Virus record (IMG/VR): IMGVR_UViG_2541047745_000010
Direction: 5' to 3' (one strand)
Source of the DNA: a virus
Lineage: Duplodnaviria; Heunggongvirae; Uroviricota; Caudoviricetes
DNA: 44,068 nt
The notes under the pieces are model-generated. The model saw nothing but the letters and a program-made list of their open reading frames with translations, had not been told where the DNA came from and did not search any database. Numbering within the stretch: the first letter of the stretch is position 1; each line of letters starts with the position of its first letter. The position numbers and the translations under genes were made by a program. Below, piece after piece: positions 36,536 to 37,532 of this stretch.

Positions 36536-36754
36536 ATGGTTGGTGAAGATCTGGTTGTTATTAACGGTCAATTGTGCAGCAAAGATGTGGCAGCCATGCT
36601 TATTAGCAAGGTTCTTCCAACTGTGCTGGAGGTCATTGCAGAAAAAGTAAAGGCTGGTCGTCCAGACAAGGAAGTTGAAGAGGCGGCAAAAACAGTTGTT
36701 CATGCCGCTACAGAAGCAATTATTTTGAAGAGCCTAGTTTCGCCCAAGCCTTAA
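36536..36754 (+). CDS. small hypothetical protein (72 aa; YdfC-like by size and position)
   Basis: ATG at 36536 with AAGGGG RBS; upstream of the DicF-like RNA as ydfC is in Qin. Confidence 0.45.
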   Translation: MVGEDLVVINGQLCSKDVAAMLISKVLPTVLEVIAEKVKAGRPDKEVEEAAKTVVHAATEAIILKSLVSPKP

Positions 36755-36914
36755 GTGAATCGGCGCTTTTTTTAGCATCACGTTCATTGAGTAATGACAA
36801 AAACTCATTCTCAGCATTCTCGATTTCCGAGAAAAATTCTTGATGAGTTGTTTCTCGCTGCGATCTGATGCTGAAAGCTAAAGCAAGTAGCCAGGCTTTG
36901 TCTTTATTATCCAT
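36720..36914 (-). CDS. small hypothetical protein encoded antisense to the early-left operon
   Basis: 64 aa, ATG at 36914; 3' end overlaps 36536..36754. Confidence 0.35.
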   Translation of the reverse strand: MDNKDKAWLLALAFSIRSQRETTHQEFFSEIENAENEFLSLLNERDAKKSADSLKAWAKLGSSK

Positions 36915-37087
36915 AGGAATACCTTATTACTGGTTGTGTGAGAACTCCAGTATACCACCGAGCCTGAAGTGGTAAAAAGACAGGCGCACAACACGAAGGC
37001 GCATTTCCGGTATTCATAAAGAGTCGGTCTTGTCTGTTAAATTTAAATGGTGGGAGTGCGCCTCCGGTTGTAAATAACGACAATTGC

Positions 37088-37146
37088 TATGTGTAGTCTT
37101 TGGCGGCATCAGTTCTACTCCGTGGCTGCCCTGCCGCCCCTTTTTA
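37088..37146 (+). ncRNA. dicF: DicF-like small RNA (cell-division inhibitor sRNA) with its terminator
   Basis: tttggcggcatcagttctactccgtggctgccctgccgcccctttttaaagtgaattttgtgatg matches recalled Qin DicF 3' two-thirds and downstream flank; 5' region differs. Confidence 0.55.
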
Positions 37147-37310
37147 AAGTGAATTTTGTGATGCGGTGAATGCGGCTAAGCGCACGCAGCACAGTTAAAA
37201 GCATCAGTGTTATGGGTGGATTATCCGGCGTTAATTGTTAACTGGTTAACGTCACCTGGAGGCACCAGGCACCGCATCGACAAAATTCATTTGTAAAAAT
37301 GGAGATAATT

Positions 37311-37532
37311 ATGATTGCTCATCACTTCGGAACTGATGAAATACCACGTCAGTGTGTGACCCCTGGCGATTATGTTCTTCATGAAGGTCGGACATATATC
37401 GCCTCGGCAAACAATATTAAAAAGCGAAAACTTTATATTCGTAGCCTGACTACAAAAACATGCATTTCTGACTGCATGATTAGAGTCTTCCTCGGTCGTG
37501 ATGGTTTACCTGTAAAGGCGGAGTCATGGTAA
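37311..37532 (+). CDS. KilR-like protein (putative FtsZ/cell-division inhibitor)
   Basis: 73 aa from ATG at 37311 with GGAG RBS; same length and position as Rac kilR (kilR-ydaE-racC-recE). Confidence 0.5.

Follow-up and report, generated by a model that had tools for sequence, protein, structure and literature searches.

Introduction

DicF is the textbook example of a prophage small RNA that blocks cell division, and it carries a second pairing region through which it rewires host sugar metabolism. DicB, its protein partner in the Qin prophage, acts through MinC, and KilR of the Rac prophage reportedly acts on FtsZ independently of MinC. The locus described here raises the question of what a DicF-like RNA may do when only its 3′ portion is recognisable. 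A reading made from the sequence alone had pointed to such an element in the window (by which we mean the whole 44,068-nucleotide stretch of viral DNA that was analysed, IMG/VR record IMGVR_UViG_2541047745_000010), had considered that its 5′ region diverged from DicF, and had proposed that its target specificity may have changed.

DicF represses ftsZ, pykA and xylR together with Hfq; its 3′ region pairs with the ribosome-binding site of ftsZ and, as revealed via the DicF23 mutation, with that of pykA, and its 5′ end pairs with xylR and is needed for xylR regulation (Balasubramanian 2016, PMC5069750). The 3′ end is also the part of DicF that addresses manX (PMC5861419). The ends of the RNA itself arise through termination, RNase III and RNase E, according to the account of Faubladier et al. 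1990 that is given in PMC5069750. We set out what can be said of the window element region by region, beginning with its family membership and fold.

The element and its fold

When all Rfam models were run against the whole 44-kb window, five gave scores above their gathering scores, DicF (RF00039) among them. The match lies on the plus strand at 37088 to 37139 and spans model positions 1-52 of 52, with 60.9 bits (E 4.8e-11, or 1.4e-12 when the scan is restricted to a 1.3-kb sub-region) against a gathering score of 48 bits, and 76.7 bits for K-12 DicF itself, taken here and in the alignments from NC_000913. The covariance-model comparison that the sequence-only reading had called for thus places the element above, not below, the family threshold. 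Its sequence reads UAUGUGUAGUCUUU-GGCGGCA-U-CAGU-UCUACUCCGUG-GCUG-CCC-UGCCGCC-CC, then UUUUU, and in both the minimum free energy and the centroid folds an unpaired 5′ arm is followed by a terminator hairpin in two parts and then the U tail. The hairpin and U tract had been placed at 37101 to 37146, and these coordinates were right (the hairpin runs from 37102 and TTTTT extends to 37145).

The structure is conserved as well as predicted. All 11 of the model pairs are standard pairs in the window element. When 20 distinct variants of the DicF hairpin were aligned, every one of the 219 cells that the Rfam structure pairs was likewise a standard pair; two pairs showed compensatory changes (U-A in place of C-G in three sequences at one pair, A-U in place of U-G in a single sequence at the other), and no slid register came near this pairing. 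In the same alignment, nine of the 11 positions in the loop show little or no variation. The resemblance that had been claimed for the downstream flank was also borne out, with 58/65, 45/45 and 39/42 identical positions in three segments and conservation as far as the start codon of the following gene, and the position of the element in its operon is the same too. The 5′ end at 37088 is that set by the covariance model, and manual inspection revealed no clear RNase E motif near it. The U tract is likely to serve as an Hfq-binding 3′ tail, as judged from DicF (PMC5069750).

Direct comparison with Qin DicF (RF00039; K-12 b1574) shows how far the likeness extends. The two share the hairpin architecture, the U tail and a UUU just 5′ of the stem, as well as the loop motif ACUCCGUG used for ftsZ and pykA pairing; both also belong to early prophage operons that lie behind an immunity region of DicA/DicC type, and both are followed by a structured spacer of ~150 nt and then by a division-inhibitor gene. 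Within the hairpin, the window element differs by a U-to-C change in the loop, an A-to-G change in the inner stem, a U-to-C change in the 3′ bulge and a U-G to C-G change in the outer stem. Beyond it, the window has a Rac-type upstream region with a probable promoter of its own in place of ydfABC, and kilR downstream in place of dicB. Given that the testable features of DicF are all present except the arm for xylR, and that the operon logic is already known, we regard the element, as judged from its sequence, as a genuine DicF-family sRNA: an ordinary, recurrent variant of an established type that happens to lack annotation.

Features of the window around the DicF-family element (positions are those of the whole window)
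Feature	Position	Strand	Basis or remark
DicC-like HTH gene	35478-35720	-	upstream immunity region
DicA-like HTH repressor gene	35817-36236	+	terminator-like hairpin 36267-36285 after the gene
Early-operon promoter-like site: TTGACA 36333-36338, 17-nt spacer, TTTAAT 36356-36361	36333-36361	+	read from sequence
First operon ORF, 72 aa, function unassigned (phrog_23495)	36536-36754	+	ORF and PHROG match
64-aa ORF, function unassigned (phrog_22868)	36720-36914	-	promoter-like site 36976-36949
Extended -10, TG-T-TAAATT	37035-37043	+	identical to K-12 Rac; 7 nt upstream of the KilS 5′-end homologue
KilS-type 5′ leader	37050-37087	+	possible start of a primary transcript of 96 nt, 37050-37145
5′ arm (arm B), UAUGUGUAGUCUUU	37088-37101	+	single-stranded in a DicF-like RNA; in place of canonical UUUCUGGUGACGUUU
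DicF-type terminator hairpin	37102-37139 (about)	+	RF00039 match and fold
Loop and 3′ side, CAGUUCUACUCCGUGGCUGCCC	about 37110-37131	+	complementary to ftsZ and pykA ribosome-binding sites
U tract, TTTTT, Rho-independent terminator	37141-37145	+	read from sequence; CCCC precedes
Conserved structured spacer	37147-37292	+	between sRNA terminator and kilR RBS, about 150 nt
kilR, 73 aa, FtsZ inhibitor of Rac-type prophages	37311-37532	+	93% identical to K-12 KilR; phrog_294 'Kil protein'
ydaE	37532-37702	+	directly after kilR
racC homologue	37777-38052	+	then recE, recT, ralR/RalA, xis, int

Origin of the 5′ arm

Properly aligned, positions 37088-37099 (TATGTGTAGTCT) agree with K-12 DicF (TTTCTGGTGACG) at only three of 12 positions, and so the 5′ part is indeed not that of canonical DicF. 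What the claim of a divergent 5′ region had missed is where that region comes from. The arm, together with ~100 nt upstream of it, is almost identical to the Rac prophage sRNA KilS of K-12: the first 20 nt of KilS are found at 37050, and the arms are nearly the same, both as a core (CUAUGUGUAGUC in the window, CUGUGUGUAGUC in KilS) and over a longer comparison (CUAUGUGUAGUCUUU against CUGUGUGUAGUC-CU).

The extent of each ancestry was defined by three-way alignment of the window with K-12 Rac and K-12 Qin and by the identities of successive segments. The promoter segment at 36985-37049 is of Rac type (62/65 positions identical to Rac, 44/65 to Qin), as is the KilS leader (37/38 and 15/38), whereas the hairpin, taken as 37102-37140, is of Qin type (13/39 identical to Rac, 34/39 to Qin), and so is 37206-37250 within the spacer, where every one of the 45 positions matches Qin and 31 match Rac. 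The alignment then reverts to Rac type at the RBS (37293-37313; 21/21 against 10/21) and throughout kilR (209/222 against 42/222). Its 5′ part and leader being of Rac/KilS type and its hairpin, along with part of the spacer, of Qin/DicF type, the element is, on these alignments, a mosaic of a KilS arm and a DicF hairpin, which we interpret as a recombinant module rather than a product of drift.

The likeness to K-12 KilS (b4833, 98 nt) includes its setting in the kilR 5′ UTR, the promoter region, the first 37 nt and the arm, and resumes in the flank down to kilR. The difference lies in the hairpin and its loop (UUUUUUUCUUGAAGUUCGG in KilS, DicF type in the window), and with it goes the pairing with pykA, which is not predicted for KilS. 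On the DicF model KilS scores 39.1 bits against the gathering score of 48, which marks it as a sub-threshold relative of DicF. As separate observations, KilS (L003:6406-6503, minus strand) is positionally homologous to DicF, and its U-rich loop has some complementarity to the ftsZ RBS (hybrid -20.1 kcal/mol, p about 0.07). A dicF-related sequence in Rac had reportedly been noted in 1994. KilS itself was predicted from RIL-seq and verified by Northern blot as an Hfq-associated RNA from the kilR 5′ UTR, its own promoter was reported to be able to drive transcription, and yncL is its sole reported RIL-seq partner (Bar et al. 2021, PMC8175672). In the literature searched we found no paper that links KilS to DicF, and Bar et al. 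2021 make no mention of the latter.

Predicted target pairing

Whether the mosaic would retain the functions of DicF depends upon its pairing regions, which we compared using windowed duplexes with opening energies (full-length duplexes, which contain huge interior loops, were discarded) and, as a second test, arm-only or loop-only duplexes set against shuffles. For ftsZ, positions -22..+0 pair with nt 23-44 of the sRNA, with a hybrid energy of -17.6 kcal/mol for the window and -16.9 kcal/mol for K-12 DicF (totals with accessibility of -5.8 and -4.9 kcal/mol). For K-12 DicF, a second and stronger duplex is predicted at -29..-7 (hybrid -22.9, total -7.3 kcal/mol); the U-to-C change in the window loop shifts the ftsZ register and gains one G-C pair. 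The pykA hybrid at -19..+0 is likewise similar, at -20.8 kcal/mol for the window and -22.3 kcal/mol for K-12 DicF. Against shuffles, the window loop is only weakly to modestly significant (p about 0.04 for ftsZ and about 0.013 for pykA), and these values need to be read with the caveat that U/C-rich loops match purine-rich ribosome-binding sites easily. The manX hybrid is weakened by one internal mismatch, from -38.4 kcal/mol in K-12 DicF to -32.1 kcal/mol in the window.

The 5′ arm behaves quite differently. In K-12 DicF the arm duplex with xylR (+6..+20) has an energy of -15.8 kcal/mol (p about 0.011), whereas the window arm reaches -6.6 kcal/mol, no better than shuffles (p about 0.9), and the canonical duplex of 11-12 bp is predicted to be absent from this allele. 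The same division is predicted across all variants, with hairpins of the DicF type pairing with ftsZ and pykA, and with the canonical arm, unlike arm B, pairing with xylR. The proposal that target specificity may have changed thus applies to one part of the RNA: the loop is predicted to keep its pairing with ftsZ and pykA, and the xylR pairing is predicted to be lost. Since the loop and 3′ side are kept, the cell-division function of the RNA is probably unchanged, and its side-regulon is probably altered, as far as the pairing predictions go.

One could instead suppose that the RNA does not differ in function from canonical DicF and that the 5′ differences are immaterial, given that it scores above the Rfam threshold and that pairing with ftsZ, with pykA and, in weakened form, with manX relies on the 3′ region that has been kept. 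Regulation of xylR needs the 5′ end, however (PMC5069750), and it is precisely this duplex that has gone, so we consider functional equivalence very improbable.

Potential targets for the new arm were considered with KilS as the guide. At the yncL 5′ UTR, the arm of K-12 KilS gives -18.9 kcal/mol (p about 0.013), and the window arm can pair at the same site, to which nine of its nucleotides in a row are perfectly complementary (CUAUGUGUA with UACACAUAG); its energy of -13.2 kcal/mol (p about 0.19) is nevertheless no better than shuffles, and because the pairing is weak yncL is uncertain as a target. Within the window, no target for arm B was found besides the gene itself.

These data bear upon a further explanation, in which the RNA is of KilS type in function: a 96-nt transcript from the internal promoter would act through its 5′ arm and leader on the targets of KilS, the loop would be irrelevant, and ftsZ would go unregulated. 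The near identity of promoter, leader and arm to K-12 KilS is what one would expect in this case, as are the predicted pairing of the KilS arm with yncL and the ability of the window arm to pair at that site. Set against this, the hairpin is of DicF rather than KilS type (34/39 against 13/39), the loop motif that DicF uses is kept in both lineages of the allele that are described below, and the energy of the arm with yncL does not stand out from shuffles. The predicted fold of the 96-nt form also masks the arm, which pairs with the leader through a G-U-rich helix; inspection of this helix across variants showed the leader to be constant and the arms to vary. We consider it rather unlikely that the RNA acts solely as a KilS, and favour an RNA in which the DicF loop remains functional.

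The operon and the spacer before kilR

The automated promoter scan accepts only -10 elements with A as their second letter, and the site at 36333 to 36361 was instead read directly. We infer that this strong promoter-like site is the early-operon promoter, its position being analogous to that of the Qin dicB promoter. The first ORF of the operon was also compared with YdfC, and this identity was ruled out as there was no alignment. Its 3′ end is overlapped by 35 nt by the 64-aa antisense ORF, whose position recalls that of sieB in K-12 Rac; compared by position and length alone, it is far shorter than SieB. Pfam gave no match for either of these ORFs, nor for KilR or RacC.

Downstream, the claim of a Rac-like kilR-ydaE-racC order holds, from the close match of kilR to its K-12 counterpart through ydaE to racC, and matching genomes annotate the kilR homologue as kil or kilR. 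It had further been proposed that one early operon encodes two inhibitors of division that are unrelated to each other. The gene order agrees with this, but the arrangement is not new: an sRNA and a protein inhibitor of division are already known together in one early prophage operon, as dicF-dicB in Qin and as KilS-kilR in K-12 Rac. The plan is that of the dicBF operon, where one early prophage promoter under repressor control serves both a division-inhibiting sRNA and a division-inhibiting protein, the protein partner here being KilR rather than DicB.

The spacer that separates the terminator of the sRNA from the RBS of kilR is predicted to form a multibranch structure (MFE -63.5 kcal/mol, z -4.8). 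In this predicted structure, three or four small hairpins lie inside a long-range stem of 22 bp (37147-37168 paired with 37270-37292), which stops just short of the kilR RBS. The spacer is kept upstream of dicB and kilR alike at more than 200 loci. Within the predicted 22-bp stem we found no compensatory pairs, only changes of wobble type and some mismatches. The spacer may be cut by RNase III, or it may control translation of the toxic gene that follows. It was also considered as a member of STnc100 (RF02076), given that the whole model, with its CACCUGGAGGCACCAGGCACC hairpin, can be aligned to 37129-37318. This was rejected because the score of 41.3 bits lies below the gathering score of 47 (K-12 Qin scores 34.4 bits and K-12 Rac 28).

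Several observations concern the remainder of the prophage. Its RecE (38151-40784, plus strand) is 877 aa in length, compared with 866 aa from the K-12 recE coordinates, and has a long acidic low-complexity middle. Two RNA antitoxins of type I toxin-antitoxin systems are present, RalA at 41836-42014 (minus strand, 219 bits) beside ralR, and sok at 29178-29352 (minus strand, 118 bits). The integrase gene (42372-43448) ends about 15 nt from the SraC/RyeA (plus) and SdsR/RyeB (minus) pair at 43463-43607, and on account of this proximity the prophage seems to have inserted right next to the core-genome ryeA/sdsR locus or into its edge.

Occurrence of the allele and variation in the slot

The allele is not confined to the window. 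In its full length it occurs in 86 of 5,426 complete E. coli genomes, including an O157:H7 strain, compared with 3,968 of the same genomes for canonical DicF and 1,455 for K-12-type KilS. One carrier strain, E. coli AVS0790 (NZ_CP124436), matches the window at 100% identity. Among the matching genomes listed, no feature is annotated at the sRNA, except for an Sp10 prophage feature in Sakai, and the variant is thus invisible in current annotation. In the deposited phage genomes of INPHARED the full allele was not found, and there were only partial matches of KilS type.

The combination of arm B with a DicF hairpin bearing a UUCU loop was found on 68 IMG/VR contigs. When 69 places with arm B and a DicF hairpin (the window and one further locus, L146, included) were compared, they split into two lineages. 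The first (29 places) has the Rac/KilS leader, a GGCGG stem and kilR; the second (40 places) has a Qin-type upstream region and a GGUGG/CCACC stem, and most of its members carry dicB and one carries kilR, with some having a Rha-like gene alongside, or instead of, dicB. A Rha-family annotation also stands at the downstream-gene position in O157:H7 ECP19-598, which has the window-type allele. The arm ATGTGTAGTC is therefore found in both Rac-like and Qin-like contexts. Similarity between the lineages starts at ATGTGTAGTC (37089 in the window), within 1 nt of the 5′ end that the model defines for DicF, and from this we argue that the functional RNA includes the arm.

A broader set of loci, collected by anchoring on the conserved flank TTTTTAAAGTGAATTTTGTGATG (at least 120 IMG/VR loci and 17 genome loci), showed that much of what lies around this flank is exchangeable. 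At least four 5′ arms occupy the slot, namely A (UUUCUGGUGACG, DicF), B (AUGUGUAGUC, KilS and the window), C (CCAUGUUGAUUACC) and others, and there are at least five types of hairpin: H1 (DicF), H2 (K-12 KilS) and H3 to H5. The downstream gene varies as well, being dicB, kilR, an 81-aa ORF (MHCFNAG...), or an ORF of roughly 240 aa that is followed by dicB or kilR; a corresponding gene carries the Rha-family annotation in L146.

This variety could be taken to mean that the RNA has no function in trans, and that the hairpin is a terminator, attenuator or processing signal which limits expression of toxic downstream genes, its likeness to DicF being a relic. The G+C-rich terminator stem does give much of the model score, the unrelated loops H2 to H5 in the same position indicate that the slot tolerates many sequences, and transcription termination reportedly silences kilR in K-12. 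However, the near invariance of the loop that is seen in the 20 variants would not be needed for termination alone, and the 5′ arm is kept as a discrete module in two upstream contexts. Both characterised homologues, DicF and KilS, are moreover Hfq-associated sRNAs. We hold a purely cis-acting role to be improbable, and continue with a trans-acting RNA as the preferred interpretation.

Discussion

The interpretation that we favour, and think fairly likely on the basis of the modelled pairing and of analogy with its relatives, is that the window encodes a DicF-family, probably Hfq-dependent, trans-acting sRNA of a Rac-like lambdoid E. coli prophage, situated in the pL-like early operon directly before kilR-ydaE-racC-recET and mosaic in its origin, whose loop would repress ftsZ and pykA and whose arm would have been retargeted. 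By analogy with DicF and KilS, the RNA could be made from its own extended -10 promoter, with a start near 37050 and a length of about 96 nt, or alternatively be derived from the operon transcript begun near 36362. Its 3′ end would be formed by the terminator at 37145 or, as in the dicB operon, by cleavage within the long spacer stem, and 5′ processing could yield a shorter form of about 58 nt from near 37088 in which the arm is exposed. The loop would then repress translation of ftsZ and pykA by pairing at their ribosome-binding sites. Since the loop would act on ftsZ translation, the RNA and the KilR protein may jointly block division upon derepression of the prophage. The swapped arm would no longer fit xylR and presumably addresses other mRNAs, common to RNAs of the KilS type.

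A more general proposal, which we make only tentatively, is that the DicF/KilS slot constitutes a modular sRNA platform, in which seed arms recombine at the boundary of the mature RNA and loops and the toxic gene are exchanged independently. Arm B, shared by this allele, the dicB-linked lineage and K-12 KilS, could on this proposal define a distinct host or phage regulon, and K-12 KilS could be a diverged paralogue of DicF.

The variant opens no new kind of biology; what is mildly new is the modular exchange of seed arms, the placing of KilS as a relative of DicF, and the existence of the arm-B subtype. The data suggest that the module that targets ftsZ has been kept while the second seed was swapped for that of the little-studied KilS of Rac, and they tie KilS to the DicF family even though it falls below the threshold of the DicF model. 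If arm B has targets of its own, then different prophages would endow their hosts with different DicF side-regulons, and this, if true, would bear on the evolution of prophage sRNAs and on differences between strains, including some O157:H7 strains that carry the allele.
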